DNA of 11,698 nucleotides from an uncultured Bifidobacteriales bacterium (GTDB lineage Bacteria; Fibrobacterota; Fibrobacteria; UBA11236): NCBI GenBank assembly GCA_964401245.1, contig CAYNXV010000001.1, positions 1-11,698 of the forward strand, in the 5' to 3' direction. A program made the position numbers and the translations under genes. The notes beneath the pieces were generated by a model, which made no database searches, had not been told where the DNA came from, and saw nothing but the letters and a program-made list of their open reading frames with translations. Shown here piece after piece: positions 1-11,698 of this stretch. Numbering within the stretch: the first letter of the stretch is position 1; each line of letters opens with the position of its first letter.

Positions 1-1
1 A

Positions 2-106
2 ATTGCCTCTGAAGATGCTTCGACTCGCATTGGTTTACCAGAAACAAAATTAGGCATAATTCCTGGCTTTGGCGGTTGCGTTCGATTACCTAGATGTTTG
101 TGGTAG
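2..106 (+). CDS. 3' end of a crotonase-fold (enoyl-CoA hydratase/isomerase family) reading frame; 5' part lies outside the window. The frame stops right after the conserved oxyanion-hole segment, so it is C-terminally short for the family (possible pseudogene or remnant).
   Basis: Frame 2 translates to [34 protein letters not shown]. This matches the crotonase signature (A-x-E-D-A ... FGLPE-x-LGxxPGxGGTQRLPRxVG). An in-frame TAG at 104-106 falls where family members continue for about 100 more residues. None of the three frames downstream shows crotonase-like sequence. Confidence 0.45.
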
Positions 107-181: not shown

Positions 182-1120
182 CTAGTCCGGATCAACACTC
201 CGAAGATATGTTCTAACCTGGTGCCGGAACTGATCATAGCTCAGTTTAAGACGTTGGGAAGCCTCCTTCTGGTTACCGGAACTTTCCTCCAAAGCTCGAA
301 CCAATAACTGACGTTTGAAAGCCACCACCTGTTCCTCATACCCGCTTTCACTCGGCATGCGCGACCCGGAAATTTCCGGTGGGAGGTCTTCCACCGAAAT
401 GACTTCGTCCAAGGAGTAGCAACAGCACCGTTCCACGACATTTTTCAGTTCCCGGATATTCCCCGGCCAGTGATACTCCTGCAAACGTTTCATAGCGTGA
501 GGACTAAAACTTGCGGCCTCCAGATTTGGAATTTCCTCCTTCAAAACCTTTACGAAATACTCGACCAGGAGAGGGATTTCCTCCCTTCTATTACGAAGTG
601 GGGGCAATTCCAAGGTGGCGAAGGCCAACCTGTCATATAAATCCGCCCTGAAGTCCCCGCTCGATATAAGTGCTTCCAGATCCGCGTTGGTCGCGCTCAC
701 TATGCGTACGTCAACCTTGATGGTCTCGTTGCCCTTCAGTCTTTGAAATTGCTGGTACTCGACTACACGGAGAATTCGTTCCTGGAAGGTCGGGCTCATG
801 TTCCCCACCTCGTCCAAAAAAAGGGTTCCGCCATTTGCCTGTTCCAACTTGCCGGAATACCGACGGTCGGCTCCGGTGAAGGCCCCCTTTTCGTGGCCAT
901 ATATCTCGGCCCCCGACAACTCGTCGTTGAAACCGGCACAATTCAAAGCGACGAAAGTCCTCTCCGCCCTCGGACTCCGGTCATGGAGATTCCGGGCAAT
1001 CAACTCCTTGCCCGTACCCCGCTCACCCCGGATCAAAACGGGCCGGGGAAGGCGGGCCACTCTCTCCAATTGCTGAAGCAGTGTTACCATGGCCGGTGAT
1101 GAGGCGATTCCTGGAAACAT
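182..1120 (-). CDS. pspF: PspF-type sigma54-dependent transcriptional activator (AAA+ enhancer-binding protein without an N-terminal receiver domain, with a C-terminal HTH).
   Basis: 312 aa. Walker A GERGTGKE. GAFTGA sigma54-contact motif in ...EIYGHEKGAFTGA... Walker B TLFLDEV. Conserved LRVVEY, RVGG-like segment, RADLYDRLA, WPGNIRELKNVVER. C-terminal HTH NQKEASQRLKLSYDQFRHQV. The length and the lack of a regulatory N-domain match PspF rather than NtrC. It is divergent from pspA. Confidence 0.88.
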   Translation of the reverse strand: MFPGIASSPAMVTLLQQLERVARLPRPVLIRGERGTGKELIARNLHDRSPRAERTFVALNCAGFNDELSGAEIYGHEKGAFTGADRRYSGKLEQANGGTLFLDEVGNMSPTFQERILRVVEYQQFQRLKGNETIKVDVRIVSATNADLEALISSGDFRADLYDRLAFATLELPPLRNRREEIPLLVEYFVKVLKEEIPNLEAASFSPHAMKRLQEYHWPGNIRELKNVVERCCCYSLDEVISVEDLPPEISGSRMPSESGYEEQVVAFKRQLLVRALEESSGNQKEASQRLKLSYDQFRHQVRTYLRSVDPD

Positions 1121-1192
1121 GGTTGATAATTATATCAAAAACCGTAGGAAATGTGTGATCCCGATCGGAATTGCCAGGCTTTTTCAAAAAAG

Positions 1193-1227
1193 TGGTGATT
1201 TTCACCAATGAGTGGCGTAATTCACCA
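1193..1227. promoter_or_regulatory. Two adjacent 15-bp inverted repeats, putative PspF upstream activating sequences (UAS). The first is the perfect palindrome TGGTGA-TTT-TCACCA (1193-1207). The second is the imperfect TGGCGT-AAT-TCACCA (1213-1227).
   Basis: A perfect 6-3-6 palindrome and a near-copy 20 bp away centre to centre (two helical turns). They lie about 70-85 bp upstream of the sigma54 -24 element, in the pspF/pspA divergent intergenic region. This geometry is typical of enhancer-binding-protein dimer sites. Confidence 0.4.
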
Positions 1228-1277
1228 TCGAAAAATGTTAAGATTTATGTTTTCAAGACGATTTTATGAATTCCGAT

Positions 1278-1292
1278 TGGCACAATAATCGC
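1278..1292 (+). promoter_or_regulatory. sigma54 (RpoN) -24/-12 promoter for the pspA operon.
   Basis: TGGCAC-aataa-TCGC: GG (1279-1280) and GC (1291-1292) are separated by exactly 10 nt, matching TGGCAC-N5-TTGCW. It lies about 45 bp upstream of the pspA ATG and downstream of the palindromes. A divergent sigma54 activator gene sits next to it. Confidence 0.6.
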
Positions 1293-1336
1293 GTTAACCT
1301 CCTTACAAACCTGTACACCCGATAAGGAGGCCGGTC

Positions 1337-2074
1337 ATGGGCATACTCAAGCGTTTAAAGGAAATCATCGAAGGTAATATCCACGAGCAACTGGATAGGG
1401 TAGACGATCCTGAAGCCCGGATCAATCAGATTCTCAGGGACCTCGAAACCGGTTTGGTTGAATTACGACAAACATTGGCCAATGCCATGGCCAACCATCA
1501 TATCAGCCTCCAAAACCGAGATAACCTGGTAAAAGAAGCCCAGGAATGGGACGACCACGCCGCCCGTGCGCTCAAAGCCGGTGACGAACCCCTAGCGCTG
1601 AAAGCCCTGGAAAAAAAACTGTATTACAAAAATAGAATTCATATGGCCGAGGAACAGGTCGCAGATGACGCCGCGCTTGTCGAACAGATAAGAGGTGACC
1701 TGCTCCGGGTGGAGGAGCGATACCACGAAGTCCGAGTCCGCAGAGACACGCTGGTTGCGCGCAATCGCAGTGCCTCCGCTAGAGGACGAGTTTTGGGAGC
1801 CACCGACAAGTTAGAGGGTCGATTACCCGGATTGGGCCATGCCGACGATGCAGTGCGCCGGATGGATGATTTGGAAACAAAGCTGGATCATACCTATGCC
1901 CAATATCAGGCCCGGGTACAATTGGCTACCGAAGGGATTGCGGGCGACGTCGAGCGTCAGGTAAAGGCGCTCAAGGCCAAGGAGGACTTAGACGCTGAAA
2001 TGGCCTCGCTAAAAGCGAGAATTTCGAGAACGGATTCCCAATCCAGTGGCGATACGAGTCCGTACAATGGCTGA
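1337..2074 (+). CDS. pspA: Phage shock protein A (PspA/IM30/Vipp1 family, ESCRT-III-like coiled-coil membrane-stress effector).
   Basis: 245 aa. N-terminus MGILKRLKEIIEGNIHEQLDRVDDPEARINQILRDLETGLVELRQTLA aligns with the E. coli PspA N-terminus ([44 protein letters not shown]). Predicted all coiled coil. AAGGAGG RBS at 1324-1330. Directly downstream of the sigma54 promoter. Confidence 0.88.
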   Translation: MGILKRLKEIIEGNIHEQLDRVDDPEARINQILRDLETGLVELRQTLANAMANHHISLQNRDNLVKEAQEWDDHAARALKAGDEPLALKALEKKLYYKNRIHMAEEQVADDAALVEQIRGDLLRVEERYHEVRVRRDTLVARNRSASARGRVLGATDKLEGRLPGLGHADDAVRRMDDLETKLDHTYAQYQARVQLATEGIAGDVERQVKALKAKEDLDAEMASLKARISRTDSQSSGDTSPYNG

Positions 2075-2107
2075 CGGAAGAACGAGGGCGGAGCAACGGA
2101 GGAGATT

Positions 2108-2743
2108 ATGGCGCTAGGGTTTCTTTTACCGGAATGGTTGCGTGAGTTCCTGATTTTTTCGGTCCAAAGGTCTCAGCTACCCTATACCATTATCCTGTTA
2201 TGCCTGCTCGTGTACTGGGTTCTGGTGATTGCCGGGGCTTTCGATATCGAGTTTTTCGGGGTGGATGTCGACGCGGATTTGGAAACACCCGAGGGCCCAT
2301 TCCAATGGCTCCTTTCTCTATTCAACATCGGCGAGCTGCCAGTAATGGTGATCATATCTTTCATGATATTGGGACTTTGGACCACTGCCATGATCACGGG
2401 CATGTTTATGCCGGAAGGAGTATCCTGGCTTTTCCGGCTGGCTTTATTGCCGGCCAATATCATCATCGGAGCGATGCTGGCATTGCCTTTAATAAAGCCG
2501 GTAGCCTGGCTGTTCCGCCAGAACGCGGCATCCCGGGAGATAATCAGGGAGGAAGGAAGCCTGGCAAACCTGCGCTCCTCTCTCGAACCTGGATTTATGG
2601 GCCAGGCGCTGATAAACCGAAGGGGAACCCCCGTGATTCTTAATGTGAAACTGGCGGAGGGAGAAGCATCCCTCAATTCGGGTTCCGAAGTAGTTGTCCT
2701 TGCCAAAGAAGGTGATTTTTACCGCGTCAAAAGGTTCAGCTGA
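2108..2743 (+). CDS. YqiJ-like (DUF1449 / NfeD-type) inner-membrane protein, the usual partner of YqiK flotillin. Multi-pass membrane N-terminal part and C-terminal OB-fold-like soluble domain.
   Basis: 211 aa. Hydrophobic helices (IILLCLLVYWVLVIAGAF; LPVMVIISFMILGLWTTAMITGMF; LALLPANIIIGAMLALPLI). Acidic D-x-D-x-D loop FFGVDVDADLETPEG. C-terminal beta-rich tail (TPVILNVKLAEGEASLNSGSEVVVLAKEGDFYRVKRF). GGAGG RBS at 2098-2102. 33 bp after pspA and immediately before the flotillin gene, the same order as the E. coli yqiJ-yqiK pair. Confidence 0.65.
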   Translation: MALGFLLPEWLREFLIFSVQRSQLPYTIILLCLLVYWVLVIAGAFDIEFFGVDVDADLETPEGPFQWLLSLFNIGELPVMVIISFMILGLWTTAMITGMFMPEGVSWLFRLALLPANIIIGAMLALPLIKPVAWLFRQNAASREIIREEGSLANLRSSLEPGFMGQALINRRGTPVILNVKLAEGEASLNSGSEVVVLAKEGDFYRVKRFS

Positions 2744-2765
2744 ACCGCAAATAGGAGATAAAACC

Positions 2766-4862
2766 ATGTTAGATAATTTCATCAACCTCATTGGGGGACT
2801 GGGAGCCGTGCTGGCCATCATCAGCGTTTTGCTGTTCTTCGGCATCATGGCTTTCGTAGTCAAGCTTTTCAAAAAGGTTCCCCAGGGTCAGGCCATTGTC
2901 CGGACCGGTTGGGGTAAGCCTAGAGTCAGTTTTACCGGCATGTTCGTCATACCAGTCCTCCACCGCATGGAAGTCATGGATATAAGCGTCAAAAGGGTTG
3001 ATATAGATAGGATGAAGGAGGATGGGCTGATTTGCCGCGACAACCTTCGAGCGGATATTAAGGTGACCTTTTTCGTCGGAGTTAATAATACCGAGCAGGA
3101 TGTGCTCAAAGTGGCCCAATCCCTGGGGGTTTCCAAGGCGAGCGATCCACAGGCATTGCGCGATTACTTCGATTCCAAGTTCTCGGACGCCCTGAAAACA
3201 GCGGGGAAACAGTTTGACTTCGTTGACCTTTATGAAAAGCGCAATGGTTTTCGCAGCGCCATTCTGGGAGAAATTGGAACCGATCTGAACGGCTACCATC
3301 TCGACGATGCCGCCATCGACTATCTTGAGCAAACCGCCTTGGAGCATTTGAATACCAAAAACATTCTCGATGCCGAGGGAATCAAGAAGATCACGGAATT
3401 GACTGCAGCCCAGAACATCCTGGCGAACAATATTCGCAATGAAGAGAAAAAAGTCATAACCAAACAGGACGTGGAAGCGCGGGAAGCCATCCTGGAACTG
3501 GAAAGGCAATTGGCGGAAGCGGAGGAAAAACAACGTCGCGAGGTTGAATCGGTGAAGGCAAGGGAAGTCGCCGAAACCCGTAAAATCCAGGAGGAGCAAC
3601 GTCTCAAATCCGAAAGAGCTCGCATAACCAGCGACGAGGAAATCGCCATCGCTGAGGAGAACAAGGACAGGCAAATCATTGTCGCCCAAAAGAACAAGGA
3701 ACGTACCGACGCCGTAGAAACTGAAAGAGTGAAGAAGGATCAGGAATTGGAAGCGACGGAGCGAATAAAGGCAGTAAGTCTGGCCGACATCGAAAAGGAC
3801 AAGGCCATCGAAGTGGAAAAGAAGAACATCCAATTCATCATAAAGGAACGGGTGGTGGTGGAAAAGGCCGTAGTGGTCGAAGAGGAGAAAATCAAAGATA
3901 CCCGCGAATGGGCCGAGGCGGATCGTATCAAAAAGGTCGCCATTACCGGAGCCGAACAATTGGCTGAGGAGGCGCTCATAGCCGAAGTGAAGGCTGCCGA
4001 CGCCAAACGCCAATCAGCGGAGCTCTATGCCAAGGAAATCATCATCAAATCGGAAGCCGAAAGGGAAGCTAGCGCGCGCAAGGCCGAGGCTATGAAGCTT
4101 TTGGCCGAAGGACAAGTGGCCGAGGTGGCTGCACCTGGATTGGGCAAGGCCAAGATACAGGAAGCCATGGCCGACGCCCTGCAAAAAGAAGGGACGGCGG
4201 AAGCAACTGTAATAGAACGCAAGGGATTCGCTGCAGCCACGGTCACCGAAAAACAAGGAACCGCAGAAGCTGCGATCATCCAGAAAAAAGGCACCGCTGA
4301 AGCCAACATCATGCACGCCAAGTACCACAGCGAAGCGGAAGGTATCAAGGAAAAGGCCGACGCCATGAAAATACTGGACGCCGTCGGAAAGGATCACGAG
4401 GAGTTCAAGCTCAAGCTCGACAAGGAACTCCAGGTCGATCTGGCGGGCATAGATATGCAGCGTCAACTGGCGGAATCGCAGGCAGAAGTCATACGTGAAG
4501 GCCTCAGAACCGCCCGCATAGACATAGTGGGAGGCGAAAGTACGTTTTTCGAGCAAATCGCCGGGGCCATCACCAAGGGGAAAACCTGGGATCGCATGGT
4601 CGACAATTCCGCTGTGCTCAGAGACGTGAAGGACACCTTCTTCAATGGCGACGGAGAATACTTCAAGTCCCAAATGAAAAAGTTCGTGGAGCAATTCGCT
4701 ATCAGCTCGGACGACGTGAAGAATATGAGCGTGGCAGCCTTGCTTGCCAAGATGGTCCAGCTCGCGGATGACAAAAAGGATCGTACCGCCTTGCAATCCA
4801 TGCTTTCGGTGGCCGACGGGATGGGAATGGGAGGCAAAAAAGGCTTCTCACTGCTGGGATGA
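2766..4862 (+). CDS. yqiK: Flotillin-family SPFH/Band-7 protein (YqiK-like): N-terminal TM anchor, SPFH domain, long E/A/K-rich coiled-coil region with EA repeats.
   Basis: ATG at 2766 preceded by AGGAGA (2752-2757). The track's upstream extension begins with TTG at 2694 and overlaps the yqiJ-like gene, so 2766 is preferred. TM segment LIGGLGAVLAIISVLLFFGIMAFVV. SPFH signature QGQAIVRTGWGKPRVSFTGMFVIPVLHRMEVMDISVKRVDI. About 450 aa of charged alpha-helical sequence and a terminal flotillin-like tail. Confidence 0.85.
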   Translation: MLDNFINLIGGLGAVLAIISVLLFFGIMAFVVKLFKKVPQGQAIVRTGWGKPRVSFTGMFVIPVLHRMEVMDISVKRVDIDRMKEDGLICRDNLRADIKVTFFVGVNNTEQDVLKVAQSLGVSKASDPQALRDYFDSKFSDALKTAGKQFDFVDLYEKRNGFRSAILGEIGTDLNGYHLDDAAIDYLEQTALEHLNTKNILDAEGIKKITELTAAQNILANNIRNEEKKVITKQDVEAREAILELERQLAEAEEKQRREVESVKAREVAETRKIQEEQRLKSERARITSDEEIAIAEENKDRQIIVAQKNKERTDAVETERVKKDQELEATERIKAVSLADIEKDKAIEVEKKNIQFIIKERVVVEKAVVVEEEKIKDTREWAEADRIKKVAITGAEQLAEEALIAEVKAADAKRQSAELYAKEIIIKSEAEREASARKAEAMKLLAEGQVAEVAAPGLGKAKIQEAMADALQKEGTAEATVIERKGFAAATVTEKQGTAEAAIIQKKGTAEANIMHAKYHSEAEGIKEKADAMKILDAVGKDHEEFKLKLDKELQVDLAGIDMQRQLAESQAEVIREGLRTARIDIVGGESTFFEQIAGAITKGKTWDRMVDNSAVLRDVKDTFFNGDGEYFKSQMKKFVEQFAISSDDVKNMSVAALLAKMVQLADDKKDRTALQSMLSVADGMGMGGKKGFSLLG
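4186..4320 (+). repeat. Degenerate tandem 33-nt (11-codon) repeats inside the flotillin CDS, encoding KEGTAEATVIER / KGFAAATVTEK / QGTAEAAIIQK / KGTAEANIMHAK.
   Basis: Four consecutive units with conserved G-T/A-A-E-A core at both nucleotide and protein level. This is typical of flotillin C-terminal EA repeats. Confidence 0.5.
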
Positions 4863-7800
4863 GCGCGGAGACCAAGCAACCCGTAGAAGTCCTCGAACAG
4901 GGCACCTACGAGATTATCCAGGCACGCCTGCGGGAACAGACCGAAAACCTGCGGCAGCGCCTGGATAATCTCAATTCGGCTCGTAAGGAGGTTTTCGGGT
5001 CCATCGAAACGACCTTGCTCGGTAACTCCCGGCTCACCACCGAGTATAATTGCAAGCCACGGGATATGGTTAGCATCGGGTCCCGCTTCCTGTTCGGCTT
5101 CAATATCCATATGGGCCTGAAAAGCGTCACCCGCCCGGAAGACGTGTTTTCCATTTATCGCTACTCGGAACAGGAGTTGCTCCCCGATAGTCTTGACGTC
5201 ATCAATGACCCGAGATTCCAGGAAAATTTTCAGGATCTGTACAAGTACTACAAAGACACCGCCTTTAAGCGCTTTTCTCGCCAAGGACCCTTTCTTTTCA
5301 TGGTGTTCCGGGTCGGCAAAGTTGTATCCGACATCAAGGTCTTCAAATGGCTGGTAGAAGGGGAGAACCTGCGCTACGTGGACAATCGGTCCGAGAGCGA
5401 ATACAGGTACCCGTCTCAGCATGAATTCGAATGGACCCGCACCCACCGGGATCGCCATCGTAGCGGCCGCCATCCTCACGTAAGCATCGAGGATAAGGTC
5501 TTTGTCGAAACCGTCGGGGGTAATCTCACCGTCAAAATCGAGGACAATACCGATGATGGAGAGGGGGTTTTCAGCGAACCCGTGGTCAACGCCGATCAAA
5601 CACTGGACGATGCGGAGATCTTTTACGCCTCTCTGGGAAACCTCATCCTCATGAAAATCCGGCCCTACCTTGAGGAGAAATACCGCTATTTCGTTTTCAG
5701 CCAGAAGACCCGGACCTGCCTCAGAATGGACGGTATCGAAAAGGCCTGCGTACTTTTGCCGGACGACCACGGTATCATCTTCTCCAACGGCTATTTTCTA
5801 CAAAATGGAGAGGCCAAGGTATTCGAAAACCCGGCTGCGGACATGCTTTTCGATCGCCGTGTCGCAAGTCCCAATGGCGAAGATACCTTGTTCGCCTTCC
5901 ATGATCGCCAAACGGGCGCTTATAATTTGTTGAGCTACAATCTCATTGAACAAACGGTCGAAATCCCCATAACCTGTCACGGCTTTACGCTTTTCGAGAA
6001 TGGGGTGATGTTGGTATTCCGCGACTCCGGCGAATCTCAGAAGCACCATATGGTTCAGTTCTGGAGAACGCCTTTCACCGGATCGTCCCATATTCTCACA
6101 TCGGAGGAGACCACTTCGGAGGCCCACCGCTTTCTGCTGAAACTGGGCAACAAGGACGTCGTACGGGCCATGGCCGAATGCAGGGAATTGATTACCCTGG
6201 TGGTGAAAGGCGAATCCTACGCCGACGTCTATGCTGACCTGGTTCGCAAATCCGGAACAATCCTCGACACCTATTTCTGGCTCGGAGACGAAAAGGCCGA
6301 AAACCTTGCGGCTGCGGTTTCCTCCTTACGGGATACGAGTAAACAGGCCTTGGATGAATTCGAAAAAGTCAGACGGGTTCGAATCCATACAACCCAGGAG
6401 ATTCACCGCGTTTCCGAAGTCTGCCGCAAGACTCTGGCCGCCATCGCAGCGACCGCATTTTCCGAAATGCAGGAGTTTGTGGATAATCTGGGAAAACTGC
6501 GCACATTGCGGGGGGAGACAATCACCCTGAAGAATTTGCGATATGCGGACCTACCCCAAATCGAAGGGCTTGAAAAGGAGATTGCGGAGGCGCTGTCCCA
6601 CCTCAGCCGGCGCTGCGTCGAATTCCTCCTGCAGCCCGATTCCCTCGATGGGTACCGTACATCCATTCAGGAGGTGGAATCACAAATCCCCGCCATCGCG
6701 AAGGTTGCCGAAGCCGATGAACTCGATAAGCGGCTTGTGCAAAGCGGATCCGAACTGGAACTCCTTATCGATATCGTCTCCAATCTTAAAATAGACGATA
6801 CTACCCAGAGCACTGAAATTGTCGACCGCATCAGCAGCCTGTTTGCGGAGCTCAACAAGTGCAAGGCTTTGTTGCGCAATCGGCGCCAGCAACTTGCGGG
6901 TGTCGAGGCCGCGGCTGAGTTCAACGTGCAAATGAAGCTGCTTGGCCAATCAGTGGTGAATTTTCTCGACTTGGCCGAAACACCCGAGCGGTGCGATGAA
7001 TCGCTTTCCAAGCTCATGGTGCAGCTGGAAGACCTGGAAGGCAAAGTAGCGGGATTCGACGAGTTTCTAGATGAAATTGGTCGTAAACGGGAAGAAATTT
7101 ACGGGGCCTTCGAAAGCCGCAAGATCCGGATTGTCGAGGATCGCAACCGTCAGGTGCAATCCTTGGAGCGTAGCGCCGAACGTATTCTCAAAAGCGTGGC
7201 AAATAAAGTGTCCCACATGGCCACCCCGGTGGAAATTAATGGGTACTTCGCCTCAGACCTCATGGTGGATAAGGCCCGCAGTCTTATAAAGCAGCTGAGA
7301 ACCCTGGGCGATCAAATCAAAGCCGATGGAATCGAAGCCAAGCTCAAGGCCTTGCAGGAGGAAGGACAACGCCAACTCAAGGATAAGCTCGATTTATACG
7401 AAGAGGGACAGGATGTCATCAAGCTGGGACGACATCGCTTCAGCGTCAATCGACAACCTTTGGAATTGACCACGGTACTCAAAGACGATGAATACTGGTT
7501 CCACCTGGGCGGAACCCGCTATTTCGAAAAAATCGAAGACTCTGCGTTTTTAGCCACCCGGCCGGTTTGGGTGCAAACTCTGGTCAGCGAAAATGACTCC
7601 GTGTACCGCGGAGAATACCTGGCATGGCAATTCCTCAAACAGGCCAGGGCCGGTCGCCTTTCGGGCCCTGACGGCGCACTCCTTTCCTGGGTGGAGGCCA
7701 GCGGATTGCGCGGCGAATTTCTGATGATTGTCCTGCATACCTTTATGGCCGGACGATATTCCGAAGGATACGTGAAAGGCCAACACGATGTGGATGCAGC

Positions 7801-10138
7801 CCGGATTCTTGAAGCCCTGCTTCCAATGGTGGCTTCGGCTGGACTGATGGTCCATACCAGTGCTGCTAGAACTGCCGGGCTTTACTGGTGGCATTTCCGC
7901 TTCGACCCCATAAAGCGTGATTTGATGGAAAATCGCTTGCGGGGCCATGCGGAAATCCTGTCGGTCTTTCCGGATGCTCCGGGCTCGCATGTTTATCGGG
8001 AAGAAATCCAAAAGTATTTGATCCCGGTTCTTGAGGAGGATGCCCTCTTCTTGGAATCCGGGAGTAGCGTCGAATCCCTTAGCACCGAAGCCGCGGGCTT
8101 TATTTTCGATTGGCGGATCTCAAGCGTATTGCGTCCGCCCGTTGACGCTGAAACCGCGGGCCTCTTGGAAGCCTTCGGAGATTCACTTCGCCTGAAAGGT
8201 CGATTGGCCGGATTTGAGAATATGCTCAAAGACCTCTCGGACCATCCCCGCGAAGCATTTTTACTGGCTCGCCATTGGCTTGCCGCAACCGCCGCCTCCC
8301 GCCCGGATAAAACTGGCTGGCAAAGCAGAGTGGATGAGTCCTGCCTCTGGGCTTTACTGGGGGGAATGGAACCCGGGCAGAAATCGGGTGCCTCCATGCA
8401 GGTCGAAGTGATTGGCATGCTGGGTGAACACAAGCAAATCGTAGATGGTCGCTATAATCTCGCTTACGATGATTTCGTGCAAAGATTGCTGGGATTCGAG
8501 AATGAAACCGTTCCCCGTTTTCAGGATTTTGAATCGCTTAGAAAGCAGCTTTCCGACGAAAAATCGGCTTCGTTGCGGCTCGATGAATTCAAACCCAGGG
8601 TTTTGGGCAGCTTCGTACGCAATCGGCTCATCGACAAAGTCTATCTACCCCTGATTGGCGACAACCTCGCCAAACAAATGGGCGTCGTGGGCGACAAACG
8701 CCGTACCGATTTGATGGGATTACTGCTCCTAATCTCCCCGCCCGGATACGGAAAAACCACACTTATGGAATACGTTGCCAGCCGCCTTGGCCTGGTTTTC
8801 ATGAAAATAAACGGTCCTGCCTTGGGGCATGAAGTCACCAGTCTCGATCCTTCACAGGCTCCTAACGCGAGCGCGGCCCAGGAAGTCGACAAACTGAACC
8901 TTGCCCTGGAGATGGGCGACAATGTCATGATTTACCTCGATGACATTCAGCATTGTCATCCCGAGTTTCTGCAGAAATTCATAAGCCTCTGCGATGGACA
9001 GCGGAAAATGGAAGGCCTGTGGCGAGGTAAGACGCGTACTTATGACCTACGCGGTCGCAAAGTCGCGGTGGTAATGGCCGGAAATCCCTATACTGAAATC
9101 GGAGAGACGTTCCGCATCCCGGATATGTTGGCTAATCGTGCGGACACCTATAATCTTGGCGACATCATCGGGGAGAATACAGGGCATTTCGAGCTCAGTT
9201 ATATCGAGAATGCAATGACATCCAACGTAGTTCTCCAGTCTCTGAACAACAAAAGCCGACAGGATCTCTTTCCCATGTTGCAGTTGGCCACAAATGGGAG
9301 TCGCGAGGGTCTGGAGTTCGAAGGTGCCTTCAGTGCGGAGGAGACCCAGGAAATCGTGGGAGTCCTCAAAAAAATGATCAGGGCCCGTGACGTCATTTTA
9401 AAAGTAAACCTCGAATATATCCGTAGTGCATCCCAAAGCGACGCATACAGGAGCGAACCCAGCTTCAAACTCCAGGGATCCTACCGGAACATGAACAAAA
9501 TAGCGGAGAAGATTCTTCCCGTGATGAACGATTCCGAGTTCGAAGCTTTATTGGCTGGGCATTATGAGGGAGAAAGTCAGACACTGACGGCAGGTGCGGA
9601 AGCGAATTTGCTCAAGTTCAAGTCCCTGAATGGCGTCTTGACCAAGGATGAGGCAGTTCGGTGGAAAGAAATATGCGAGTCCTTCAAGGCGCAAAATAAA
9701 GTTAAGCAACTTGGAGGCGACGCCATGGGGGCGATGCTGGGAGAAGTCATGACACTTGGAACCCGCCTGGGTGATATCGGCTCCATTCTGGAAAAAGGCA
9801 TAAATAATACAGGCGAACCTCGCATTCTTCGTCAGGAAATCGATTTGGGATGGGTGGAAAAAAACTACGACATGGGATGGGACACCATCAAGTTTGAAAT
9901 GGGAGATTGGATTGAAAGTCCGGAATTCTGGAAACGAGTTCGTTATTATGTCAGAACCATCCAACCTATTGTCCAGGAACTGGAACCCCTGCGCCGAACC
10001 CTTCTTGAAACCCCTATCGAAAATTGGCCCGCCGGTGAACAGGGCGAAAAATTAGAAGGTTTCAGACAAACCATGAATCGCATCCTTTGGACATATGGTG
10101 GCATGGTCAAGCTGCTGCGAATGGCTGGAAAAAAGTGA
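4859..10138 (+). CDS. Giant (1759 aa) uncharacterised multi-domain protein with one C-proximal MoxR/dynein-type AAA+ ATPase module. Translationally coupled to flotillin.
   Basis: A single uninterrupted 5.28-kb ORF. ATG 4859-4861 overlaps the flotillin stop TGA 4860-4862 (ATGA). N-terminal coiled coil, then a beta-rich region (about aa 60-410), then about 800 aa of alpha-helical sequence. AAA+ motifs: Walker A LISPPGYGKTT (GYGKTT at nt 8744-8761); Walker B VMIYLDDIQ (DD at 8939-8944); NP-type sensor VVMAGNPYTE; arginine-finger-like IPDMLANRAD. An alpha-helical tail of about 280 aa follows. Confidence 0.82.
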   Translation: MSAETKQPVEVLEQGTYEIIQARLREQTENLRQRLDNLNSARKEVFGSIETTLLGNSRLTTEYNCKPRDMVSIGSRFLFGFNIHMGLKSVTRPEDVFSIYRYSEQELLPDSLDVINDPRFQENFQDLYKYYKDTAFKRFSRQGPFLFMVFRVGKVVSDIKVFKWLVEGENLRYVDNRSESEYRYPSQHEFEWTRTHRDRHRSGRHPHVSIEDKVFVETVGGNLTVKIEDNTDDGEGVFSEPVVNADQTLDDAEIFYASLGNLILMKIRPYLEEKYRYFVFSQKTRTCLRMDGIEKACVLLPDDHGIIFSNGYFLQNGEAKVFENPAADMLFDRRVASPNGEDTLFAFHDRQTGAYNLLSYNLIEQTVEIPITCHGFTLFENGVMLVFRDSGESQKHHMVQFWRTPFTGSSHILTSEETTSEAHRFLLKLGNKDVVRAMAECRELITLVVKGESYADVYADLVRKSGTILDTYFWLGDEKAENLAAAVSSLRDTSKQALDEFEKVRRVRIHTTQEIHRVSEVCRKTLAAIAATAFSEMQEFVDNLGKLRTLRGETITLKNLRYADLPQIEGLEKEIAEALSHLSRRCVEFLLQPDSLDGYRTSIQEVESQIPAIAKVAEADELDKRLVQSGSELELLIDIVSNLKIDDTTQSTEIVDRISSLFAELNKCKALLRNRRQQLAGVEAAAEFNVQMKLLGQSVVNFLDLAETPERCDESLSKLMVQLEDLEGKVAGFDEFLDEIGRKREEIYGAFESRKIRIVEDRNRQVQSLERSAERILKSVANKVSHMATPVEINGYFASDLMVDKARSLIKQLRTLGDQIKADGIEAKLKALQEEGQRQLKDKLDLYEEGQDVIKLGRHRFSVNRQPLELTTVLKDDEYWFHLGGTRYFEKIEDSAFLATRPVWVQTLVSENDSVYRGEYLAWQFLKQARAGRLSGPDGALLSWVEASGLRGEFLMIVLHTFMAGRYSEGYVKGQHDVDAARILEALLPMVASAGLMVHTSAARTAGLYWWHFRFDPIKRDLMENRLRGHAEILSVFPDAPGSHVYREEIQKYLIPVLEEDALFLESGSSVESLSTEAAGFIFDWRISSVLRPPVDAETAGLLEAFGDSLRLKGRLAGFENMLKDLSDHPREAFLLARHWLAATAASRPDKTGWQSRVDESCLWALLGGMEPGQKSGASMQVEVIGMLGEHKQIVDGRYNLAYDDFVQRLLGFENETVPRFQDFESLRKQLSDEKSASLRLDEFKPRVLGSFVRNRLIDKVYLPLIGDNLAKQMGVVGDKRRTDLMGLLLLISPPGYGKTTLMEYVASRLGLVFMKINGPALGHEVTSLDPSQAPNASAAQEVDKLNLALEMGDNVMIYLDDIQHCHPEFLQKFISLCDGQRKMEGLWRGKTRTYDLRGRKVAVVMAGNPYTEIGETFRIPDMLANRADTYNLGDIIGENTGHFELSYIENAMTSNVVLQSLNNKSRQDLFPMLQLATNGSREGLEFEGAFSAEETQEIVGVLKKMIRARDVILKVNLEYIRSASQSDAYRSEPSFKLQGSYRNMNKIAEKILPVMNDSEFEALLAGHYEGESQTLTAGAEANLLKFKSLNGVLTKDEAVRWKEICESFKAQNKVKQLGGDAMGAMLGEVMTLGTRLGDIGSILEKGINNTGEPRILRQEIDLGWVEKNYDMGWDTIKFEMGDWIESPEFWKRVRYYVRTIQPIVQELEPLRRTLLETPIENWPAGEQGEKLEGFRQTMNRILWTYGGMVKLLRMAGKK

Positions 10139-10229: not shown

Positions 10230-10607
10230 ATGAAATGCGCCAAATGTAAATCCCAAATGGATAAAATCGGTTACATGGGGATCGAAGTGGATAGATGTAA
10301 ATCCTGCTTTGGTATGTGGTTCGACGTGAATGAATTGCAGGATATTCTCAAACTAAAAGGCGGAACGGCCGTGGATATCGGCAATGAGTGGGAATTCAAA
10401 AATTCAAGCCAGATTGAAGATTACAGTTGCCCTGAAGATGGTTTCAAAATGATCAAAATGGTGGATCCAAAGCAAAGCCACGTTTGGTACGAATCATGTG
10501 GGCATTGTAAGGGTATTTTTTTGGATGCCACGGAGTTGAAAAAATTGAATGAAAGAACCCTGGTTTCGCTTTTCAAATCCATTACGGCGCCCGAAAGAAG
10601 AATTTGA
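10230..10607 (+). CDS. Small tandem zinc-ribbon protein (two TFIIB-type / PF13453-like CxxC...CxxC zinc ribbons).
   Basis: ATG at 10230 with AAAGGAAA about 8 nt upstream. The track's longer form from 10194 adds 12 aa lacking an RBS. Repeat 1: CAKCKSQM...VDRCKSCFGMWFDVNEL. Repeat 2: CPEDGFKM...YESCGHCKGIFLDATEL. Both have the zn-ribbon family WFD/FLD...EL motif. Visibly lower GC than the flanking genes. Confidence 0.72.
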   Translation: MKCAKCKSQMDKIGYMGIEVDRCKSCFGMWFDVNELQDILKLKGGTAVDIGNEWEFKNSSQIEDYSCPEDGFKMIKMVDPKQSHVWYESCGHCKGIFLDATELKKLNERTLVSLFKSITAPERRI

Positions 10608-10874: not shown

Positions 10875-11698
10875 ATGCTCATATTTCGGATCGTATCTCT
10901 ATGCCTGCTTTTCTGCCTCACCCAATCCTTCGCCGAGCCGCCGCGTAACCTTACCTCCGGTGAAATCCATCTCGCCCTCCGCAAGCTCAAGGTCCTGGGC
11001 ACGGTACTCTATGTGGCGGCCCATCCCGACGACGAAAACACCCGCCTTCTTTCGTATTTCGCCGGAGAAAGGCTATTGCGCACCGGATACCTTTCCCTCA
11101 ATCGCGGCGAGGGCGGGCAGAATCTTATCGGCCCGGAATTGGGCACGCTCCTAGGTGTCATCCGGACGCAGGAATTGCTGCGAGCCCGCTCCATCGACGG
11201 GGCGGAACAGTTTTTCACCCGGGCCATCGATTTCGGTTACTCCAAGTCGTCGGAAGAAAGTCTTTCCAAATGGGGGCACGAAGAAATCCTCTCCGATGTG
11301 GTGCGGGTAATCCGGAAATTTCGTCCCGACGTCATCGTAACCCGATTCACTCCCGAAGTGGGTGGGCATGGACACCACCTCGCATCGGCCATGCTGGCGA
11401 AGGAGGCTTTCGTCGCGGCCGCCGATTCGACCCGCTTCACCGATCAGCTTAGGGAGCTTCGACCTTGGCAGGCCCGGCGGGTTTATTGGAATGCATGGCG
11501 ACCGGGGGAGAGAACGGATTCGGCTTCGCTGCTGGGAGGGATTGACGGCGGTATTTTCAATCCCATATTGGGAGAATCTTATTCCGAAATCGCGGCGCGG
11601 AGCCGTAACAGCCATAAGAGCCAGGGATTCGGAACCATTCCCGTGCGAGGGACGGAGCCGGAAAAGTTCCAATATCTCGCGGGCGACAGCGTGTCGGG
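10875..11698 (+). CDS. PIG-L / LmbE-family (GlcNAc-PI de-N-acetylase-like) deacetylase with N-terminal signal peptide. Partial, continues past the window end.
   Basis: My own frame-0 translation: MLIFRIVSLCLLFCLTQSFA|EPP... gives a signal peptide. Zinc-binding signature VAAHPDDE, then LNRGEGG and GGHGHH, all hallmarks of the PIG-L superfamily. The frame is open through nt 11698, which is why the ORF track omits it. The overlapping track ORFs 10714-11154(+) and 11151-11672(-) are low-complexity alternatives. Confidence 0.8.
   Translation, partial: MLIFRIVSLCLLFCLTQSFAEPPRNLTSGEIHLALRKLKVLGTVLYVAAHPDDENTRLLSYFAGERLLRTGYLSLNRGEGGQNLIGPELGTLLGVIRTQELLRARSIDGAEQFFTRAIDFGYSKSSEESLSKWGHEEILSDVVRVIRKFRPDVIVTRFTPEVGGHGHHLASAMLAKEAFVAAADSTRFTDQLRELRPWQARRVYWNAWRPGERTDSASLLGGIDGGIFNPILGESYSEIAARSRNSHKSQGFGTIPVRGTEPEKFQYLAGDSVS

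Follow-up and report, generated by a model that had tools for sequence, protein, structure and literature searches.

The 11,698-nucleotide stretch of contig CAYNXV010000001.1 analyzed here (hereafter the window) carries a gene for a PspF-like activator and, divergent from it, a tightly packed row of genes for PspA, a YqiJ-like membrane protein, a flotillin and a giant AAA+ ATPase of 1759 amino acids (aa). As judged from gene neighborhoods in many phyla, the conserved unit in this row is the YqiJ-flotillin-ATPase triad and not a Psp system. Our preferred reading, to which we give about an even chance, is that the window holds a stress-inducible PspF/sigma-54 operon that joins a classical-type PspA to an autonomous flotillin-ATPase module.

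The evidence for the triad comes from 84 other loci, from many phyla, in which a homologue of the giant gene is present. In 65 of them the sequence was sufficient to look for the flotillin gene, and in 64 of these it immediately precedes the giant gene; a yqiJ-like gene lies 5' of the flotillin gene in every one of 62. No other neighbor recurs across phyla around the triad among the loci examined. By contrast, a PspA gene is found near the triad in 11/60 loci and no PspA gene adjoins it in the other 49, whereas a PspF-like gene stands beside the triad in none of the 60. Thus, the constant partner of the ATPase is the flotillin pair rather than PspA, and the unit proposed by the sequence-only reading of the window, a rewired Psp system, is not supported by the comparison. 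The sole PspF-like gene among the loci (in L073) is encoded about 2–3 kb past the giant gene in the opposite orientation, without linkage to a pspA, and we judged it unrelated. In the Pontibacter loci (L008–L014) and in L035 the flotillin and giant genes are separated by 0.7–3 kb instead of a few bases; this wide spacing in Bacteroidota could reflect inserted genes or an extended start of the giant gene.

Where PspA does accompany the triad, it does so in three forms. Ten of the 11 PspA-bearing loci are from Bacteroidota and combine a same-strand CesT/Tir-PspA arrangement with a divergent gene for an XRE-type helix-turn-helix (HTH) protein of 236–240 aa, which occupies the position of pspF (1484–2206, minus strand, in L083; likewise in L001, L004, L030, L031, L034, L035, L055, L061 and L072). 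A second form is seen in L022, a metagenome-assembled genome from Polyangia, in which an operon of pspA, a gene of unknown function and a rhodanese gene (3862–5801, minus strand) diverges from the yqiJ-flotillin-ATPase triad. The PspF-PspA pair of the window is the other. Because the PspA subfamilies differ between loci, PspA was brought to the triad in at least two or three independent events, and the window, as an independent recruitment to the same module, strengthens the case for a functional link. The XRE-HTH gene in the place of pspF also suggests that one regulator was exchanged for another around a common module, an XRE-HTH protein serving in Bacteroidota and PspF in the window. As a side observation, the rhodanese of L022 recalls PspE.

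Within the window, whose positions serve as coordinates and whose gene boundaries come from a list of open reading frames (ORFs) and their translations, the pspF-like gene (182–1120, minus strand, 312 aa) was identified by Pfam, NCBIfam and alignment to the E. coli protein. Four genes follow on the plus strand: pspA, which encodes the ESCRT-III-like PspA/IM30 protein (1337–2074, 245 aa; PF04012); ORF3, for a YqiJ/YuaF-like membrane protein (2108–2743, 211 aa; hhalign profile, hydropathy and gene neighborhood); ORF4, for a YqiK-type flotillin (2766–4862 with its ATG at 2766, 698 aa; hhalign, AlphaFold and Foldseek); and the gene for the giant ATPase (4859–10138; Pfam DUF3686, DUF7902, AAA and AAA_5). 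Gaps of 33 bp and 22 bp separate pspA from ORF3 and ORF3 from ORF4, and ORF4 overlaps the giant gene by the 4 bp of an ATGA (−4 bp). All of these genes, coordinates and distances are present as the sequence-only reading had claimed. So too is the absence of a visible terminator: between 1337 and 10138 we found no convincing intrinsic terminator on the plus strand, and the total of terminator-like sites was not above that of shuffled sequence. The claimed lack of pspB and pspC holds as regards the window, where neither had a Pfam or NCBIfam match among the scanned proteins and where 2075–10138 is filled by the yqiJ-like, flotillin and ATPase genes.

The region between pspF and pspA contains a sigma-54-type −24/−12 promoter, TGGCACAATAATCGC (1278–1292, plus strand; TGGCAC-N5-TCGC), which sits 45 bp before the pspA ATG and is the sole exact match to TGGCAC-N5-TYGC in the window. 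For a slightly broader pattern, TGGCA[CT]-N5-T[TC]GC, the background in the 84 related loci is about 0.002 per 440 bp. About 50–85 bp 5' of the promoter, two tandem 15-bp dyads (1193–1227) form inverted repeats that are candidate activator-binding sites, TGGTGATTTTCACCA at 1193–1207 and TGGCGTAATTCACCA at 1213–1227. Both kinds of element are kept in the related loci L086 and L088: the dyads recur there as TGGTG-N5-CACCA and TGGCG-N5-CACCA with diverged flanks, and the promoter has the counterparts TGGCACAATACTCGC in L086 and TGGCATCATTTTCGC in L088. Indeed, in a three-way alignment of the window with these two loci, conservation amid the diverged intergenic DNA is concentrated in the dyads, the −24/−12 elements and the ribosome-binding site. 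Such a footprint is good evidence, at the level of sequence conservation, that the promoter put forward in the sequence-only reading is functional, activator-dependent and of the sigma-54 type. The pattern was found upstream of the triad in none of the 60 other loci, which led us to reject the idea that the triad is generally under sigma-54 control.

The conservation extends beyond the promoter. L086 and L088 are short contigs that contain the 5' end of a divergent activator gene, a pspA whose product is 73–76% identical to the window PspA, and a homologue of ORF3. L085 carries the counterparts of ORF4 and the giant gene, and at its start it shares an overlap of 136 bp (92.6% identity) with the end of L086. 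L086 aligns to 870–2720 of the window and L085 to 2766–9138; together, the overlap and the alignments show that a lineage about 70% identical to the window in DNA sequence keeps the entire cluster in collinear order. The gene order is thus conserved in at least one related lineage. Scans of metagenomes by PspA patterns found no relatives.

These junctions bear on the possibility that the genes are neighbors without shared function, a monocistronic pspA under PspF and sigma-54 that happens to lie 5' of an independently expressed flotillin module. In most genomes the triad works without an adjacent PspA and must have its own promoter there, and in bacteria other than Enterobacteria pspA is often the only gene with which PspF is paired (Ravi et al., PMC11237479). 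In the window, however, the 33-bp gap is too small for an intergenic promoter and a terminator is absent, and L086, L087 and L088, with about 67–70% DNA identity, retain the pspA/ORF3 junction. The independent fusions of PspA to the triad in Bacteroidota also make chance unlikely, and we consider this explanation quite improbable.

The protein encoded by the pspF-like gene consists, in Pfam, of Sigma54_activat (aa 6–170, E 2.6e-60), AAA_lid_14 (aa 176–255) and HTH_8 (aa 270–299), the last a weak match of 19.2 bits that falls under the 22-bit cut-off. The scan found no N-terminal sensory or regulatory domain, so that the domain make-up is that of PspF: a sigma-54 AAA+ domain and a C-terminal HTH without a sensory domain. 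The protein can be aligned over its entire length with E. coli PspF (45% identity), contains GAFTGA, and has TIGR02974 PspF as its top NCBIfam model. Its gene also has the setting of pspF, divergent from pspA with a sigma-54 promoter and upstream candidate activator sites between them, and to call it a canonical PspF activator, as had been done from the sequence alone, is apt in these respects.

PspA matches PF04012 with E 2.9e-35 (122 bits, cut-off 33.9) and is 26% identical to E. coli PspA across its full length (E 1e-17), with a similar N-terminal helix sequence. It is closer to the classical E. coli protein (65 bits) than to the CesT-linked PspAs (28–35 bits), and BLASTP gave no match to E. 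coli YjfJ. Common to the window and E. coli pspF-pspABCDE are a divergently oriented pspF whose product lacks a sensory domain, dyads upstream of a sigma-54 promoter, and a PspA/IM30 protein encoded first. The window differs in that pspB and pspC do not adjoin pspA; none of pspB, pspC, pspD and pspE follows it, and the flotillin module stands in their place.

The two membrane proteins of the triad are barely visible to domain models. Direct Pfam and NCBIfam scans gave no significant match for either: YqiJ_N reached only E 0.56 on ORF3, ORF4 had no match to Band_7 or Flot at E ≤10, and neither the ORF4 sequence by itself nor its profile retrieved anything useful from PDB sequences. Family profiles resolved both. 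A 46-sequence profile of ORF4 aligned to E. coli YqiK in hhalign over 411 columns (probability 100%, E 4.6e-38), and a 36-sequence profile of ORF3 aligned to E. coli YqiJ over 181 columns (probability 97.5%, E 8.6e-12). The L083 orthologue of ORF3 does carry YqiJ_N, but Band_7 matches only 1 of the 46 ORF4 family members.

The AlphaFold model of the ORF4 protein, of moderate confidence, shows a transmembrane helix (hydrophobic segment, aa 1–39), an α/β SPFH domain (aa 35–190, pLDDT ~85) and long helices (aa 203–582). Foldseek matched it in the PDB to prohibitin, flotillin, HflK/C, stomatin and erlin (E 6e-10 to 1e-7), including the HflK/C-FtsH (7wi3, 9cz2) and QmcA-YbbJ SPFH-NfeD (8z5g) complexes. 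Membrane anchor, SPFH domain and long helical region are the architecture of a flotillin. Because a basic KLFKK follows the transmembrane helix, the positive-inside rule would place the SPFH and coiled-coil parts on the cytoplasmic side. ORF3, by hydropathy, has three hydrophobic segments, an acidic loop and a predicted soluble C-terminal domain; a multi-transmembrane N-terminal part, homology to YqiJ and a place directly 5' of the SPFH gene mark it as a YqiJ-like partner of the flotillin. The YqiJ/NfeD-like and YqiK-type labels assigned earlier were therefore correct by profile and fold comparison, though Pfam and NCBIfam are silent.

The same NfeD-like/flotillin pair occurs in the same order in E. 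coli yqiJ-yqiK and B. subtilis yuaF-floT, with clear homology at the profile level. Unlike the window, E. coli K-12 has no giant ATPase gene downstream of yqiJK, and ORF4 is longer than YqiK (698 vs 553 aa) and has diverged beyond the reach of Pfam Band_7. Two Bacteroidota loci contain an additional SPFH-only gene of about 182 aa between the yqiJ-like and the full-length flotillin genes (L083, 4568–5116; L001, 6963–7514; both plus strand), and these resemble the N-terminal SPFH part of ORF4 (E ~1e-20).

The giant protein is built from a DUF3686 domain (aa 31–473, E 4.4e-183; window 4949–6277, plus strand), a helical part with DUF7902 (aa 594–678), a variable middle, an AAA+ module and a variable tail. 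The first of these is a beta-propeller according to Table S3 of Ravi et al. (PMC11237479), which lists the architecture as 'Betapropeller+Coiled-coil+AAA-ATPase' with the example Dokdonia donghaensis ANH61663.1. Pfam recognizes one AAA+ region (aa 1289–1419), in which AAA and AAA_5 both score over their cut-offs, within a core at aa 1241–1460 (8579–9238, plus strand); the length of 1759 aa and the single AAA+ domain are as first described. No transmembrane or hydrophobic segment was found in the protein, which is therefore probably cytoplasmic. Its family comprises more than 3,700 clusters at 90% identity, with members about 50% identical across phyla, and spans Planctomycetota, Bacteroidota, Verrucomicrobiota, Calditrichia, Polyangia, Desulfobacterota and Acidobacteriota. 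Upon comparison of 37 diverse members, we found the Walker A motif (GYGKTT), the Walker B motif (DD), N1409 (candidate sensor-1) and R1427 (candidate arginine finger) to be conserved. The AAA+ core as a whole has 88% column conservation. These invariant catalytic residues point to a live ATPase, which counts in favor of the preferred reading. A search of 1.84 billion representatives with the AAA+ module gave 906 matches at E ≤0.001 and 367 at E ≤1e-30. Every full-length relative measures 1,600–2,000 aa, and the shorter ones resemble contig fragments, so that the module is confined to the giant architecture.

Most homologues of the giant protein are labeled 'DNA repair ATPase', including many in NCBI, and Pfam calls DUF3686 an 'ATPase involved in DNA repair', which raises the question of whether the protein is unrelated to the membrane genes beside it. 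Weak RuvB/MCM-like fold matches and Walker A matches lean the same way. Yet the sequence similarity to p97 and RuvB among proteins of solved structure is limited to about 40 residues around Walker A, Pfam found no nucleic-acid-binding domain in the protein, and the flotillin and yqiJ-like genes almost always precede its gene. Nor did the library searched yield papers on DUF3686, PF12458 or DUF7902, or experimental work on the giant ATPase. We give the DNA repair explanation very little credence. A survey of SPFH proteins in P. aeruginosa does not mention the ATPase.

A model of the AAA+ module, of moderate confidence, has its best fold matches in NorQ and CbbQ of the MoxR family, followed by ClpB-NBD2 and midasin. 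Relative to the MoxR family (NorQ, CbbQ, RavA), the window ATPase is about 1,450 aa longer, shares 13–16% identity, has DD in its Walker B motif and comes without a gene for a VWA partner. A parallel in logic is offered by HflK/C-FtsH and QmcA-YbbJ, in which an SPFH scaffold is combined with an AAA+ enzyme or an NfeD-type partner and whose cage proteins the ORF4 model matches. The window ATPase differs from FtsH in being soluble, in having a beta-propeller and coiled coils but no protease domain, and in being unrelated to it.

Both flotillins and PspA have been connected with membrane integrity in bacteria. Given its near-obligate linkage to the flotillin/NfeD pair, the giant ATPase is a strong candidate for the role of energy-consuming partner of an SPFH scaffold. 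In the mechanism that we propose, the triad would be a self-contained, ancient membrane module, in which the flotillin and the YqiJ/NfeD-like protein probably form an SPFH cage or scaffold on the inner membrane face. The propeller/coiled-coil/AAA+ protein would act as the scaffold's dedicated ATP-driven remodeller, serving its assembly, its disassembly or the handling of clients. PspA would be an add-on effector in some lineages, and here would bring its own stress-responsive regulator. The PspF-type activator would bind the two dyads and fire the sigma-54 promoter, giving one transcript of pspA, the yqiJ-like gene, the flotillin gene, the ATPase gene and possibly a zinc-ribbon gene farther downstream. 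Membrane damage would then induce an ESCRT-III-like repair polymer and a flotillin machine together.

Several observations weigh against a stress-inducible operon of this kind. The PspF-like protein and PspA both score under the NCBIfam equivalog cut-offs (341.8 bits vs 443.55 for TIGR02974 and 285.8 vs 529 for NF008622 in the former; 104 vs 243 for TIGR02977 in the latter). The surface tryptophan W56 of E. coli PspF, which in that species is required for PspA binding and inhibition, aligns with an alanine (SSRWQGPF in E. coli, SPRAERTF in the window), so that feedback of PspA on the window PspF is only an assumption, and the E. coli-style PspA-PspF switch may not apply here. A promoter within pspA may serve the triad. 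The Walker B motif reads Asp-Asp instead of Asp-Glu (YLDDIQH, aa 1361–1362, window 8939–8944) in 37/37 homologues, which is unusual for an AAA+ protein that otherwise appears catalytically intact. Lastly, the putative link between the ATPase and the flotillin comes from gene neighborhood.

The sequence-only reading had arranged the same genes around PspA: the YqiJ/flotillin pair would replace PspB and PspC as the sensors that free PspF, and the giant AAA+ protein would disassemble PspA polymers in the manner of Vps4. The likeness to Vps4/ESCRT-III is that a member of the ESCRT-III superfamily is encoded beside an AAA+ protein, PspA being an ESCRT-III homologue according to the literature. pspA also lies in a tight cluster behind the only recognizable promoter and has been recruited to the triad more than once, and in B. 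subtilis the SPFH protein YdjI, according to Popp et al. 2022, potentially recruits PspA and may thus tie it to the membrane. MoxR-type AAA+ proteins are remodellers too, so that action on PspA is possible. The ATPase, however, lacks the features of Vps4, an N-terminal MIT domain and an AAA fold of the classical clade: Pfam finds no MIT domain in it, its fold matches are not led by classical AAA proteins, and it travels with the flotillin instead of PspA. In PspA, whose C-terminal tail varies even between close relatives, no MIM-like docking motif is evident. The equivalent of W56 is missing from PspF, the proposed sensing by YqiJ and flotillin finds no support, and the counts of 49 triad loci without adjacent PspA and of none with a PspF-like gene beside the module speak against this arrangement. 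The Vps4-like role is thereby weakened, and we regard the PspA-centered arrangement as improbable.

The partnership itself has been described before. Ravi et al. 2024 (mSystems, PMC11237479; preprint 2020) reported operons, in Bacteroidetes and others, of CesT/Tir, PspA, YqiJ/YuaF (a 3TM, that is three-transmembrane, protein), flotillin and the propeller/AAA+ protein, found abbreviated PspA-less operons to be more widespread, and suggested that the operon partners mediate sub-membrane dynamics with PspA. We recovered these operons in 10 loci (e.g. L083, L001, L061), and in the window, too, these three downstream genes follow one another as they do there, directly behind a gene of the PspA family. 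It departs from them in four respects: the CesT/Tir gene is absent, with no ORF between pspF and pspA; its PspA is of another subfamily than the yjfJ-family PspA linked to CesT/Tir; the divergent regulator is a PspF-type sigma-54 activator and not an XRE-HTH protein; and the sigma-54 promoter is present. The section of that study on pspF variants does not list a combination with flotillin and AAA+ genes. Because the partnership was predicted between 2020 and 2024, the window does not hold a new kind of system; rather, the PspF/sigma-54 wiring and the classical-type PspA without CesT/Tir appear to be new.

A broader version of the preferred reading, which we put forward tentatively and would not expect to hold in full, is that the ~1,700-aa ATPase is the dedicated motor of bacterial flotillin cages from Planctomycetota to Bacteroidota, that PspA has repeatedly been plugged into it, and that the window represents a membrane-repair device inducible through PspF and sigma-54, in which the flotillin scaffold, the ATP-driven remodeller and the PspA polymer would work jointly. 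PspF, the two dyads and the sigma-54 promoter in any case provide a defined regulatory handle for inducing an uncharacterized, highly conserved ATPase.

Downstream of the giant gene, a plus-strand gene at 10230–10607 encodes a 125-aa protein with two zinc ribbons (Pfam Zn_ribbon_TFIIB, PF13453, in two stretches). It starts 91 bp past the stop of the giant gene, and no intervening terminator was found, so it may be a fifth gene of the operon, although its membership is uncertain. Zinc-ribbon proteins such as B. subtilis YdjG are among the PspA neighbors noted by Ravi et al. (PMC11237479). We found no such gene near the triad in the other 84 loci and rejected it as a conserved member of the triad.

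A role of the genes in anti-phage defense was likewise rejected, as PADLOC recognized in PspF only a generic likeness to activators and gave noise for the others. No RNA genes were detected in the window. At its left end (1–103, plus strand) lies the 3' end of a gene whose translation, judged by eye, resembles enoyl-CoA hydratase/isomerase. At its right end, a plus-strand gene that runs past the window (10875–11698) encodes a PIG-L/LmbE-type deacetylase (PF02585, E 7.8e-14) with an AHPDDE motif and a hydrophobic, signal-peptide-like N-terminus.

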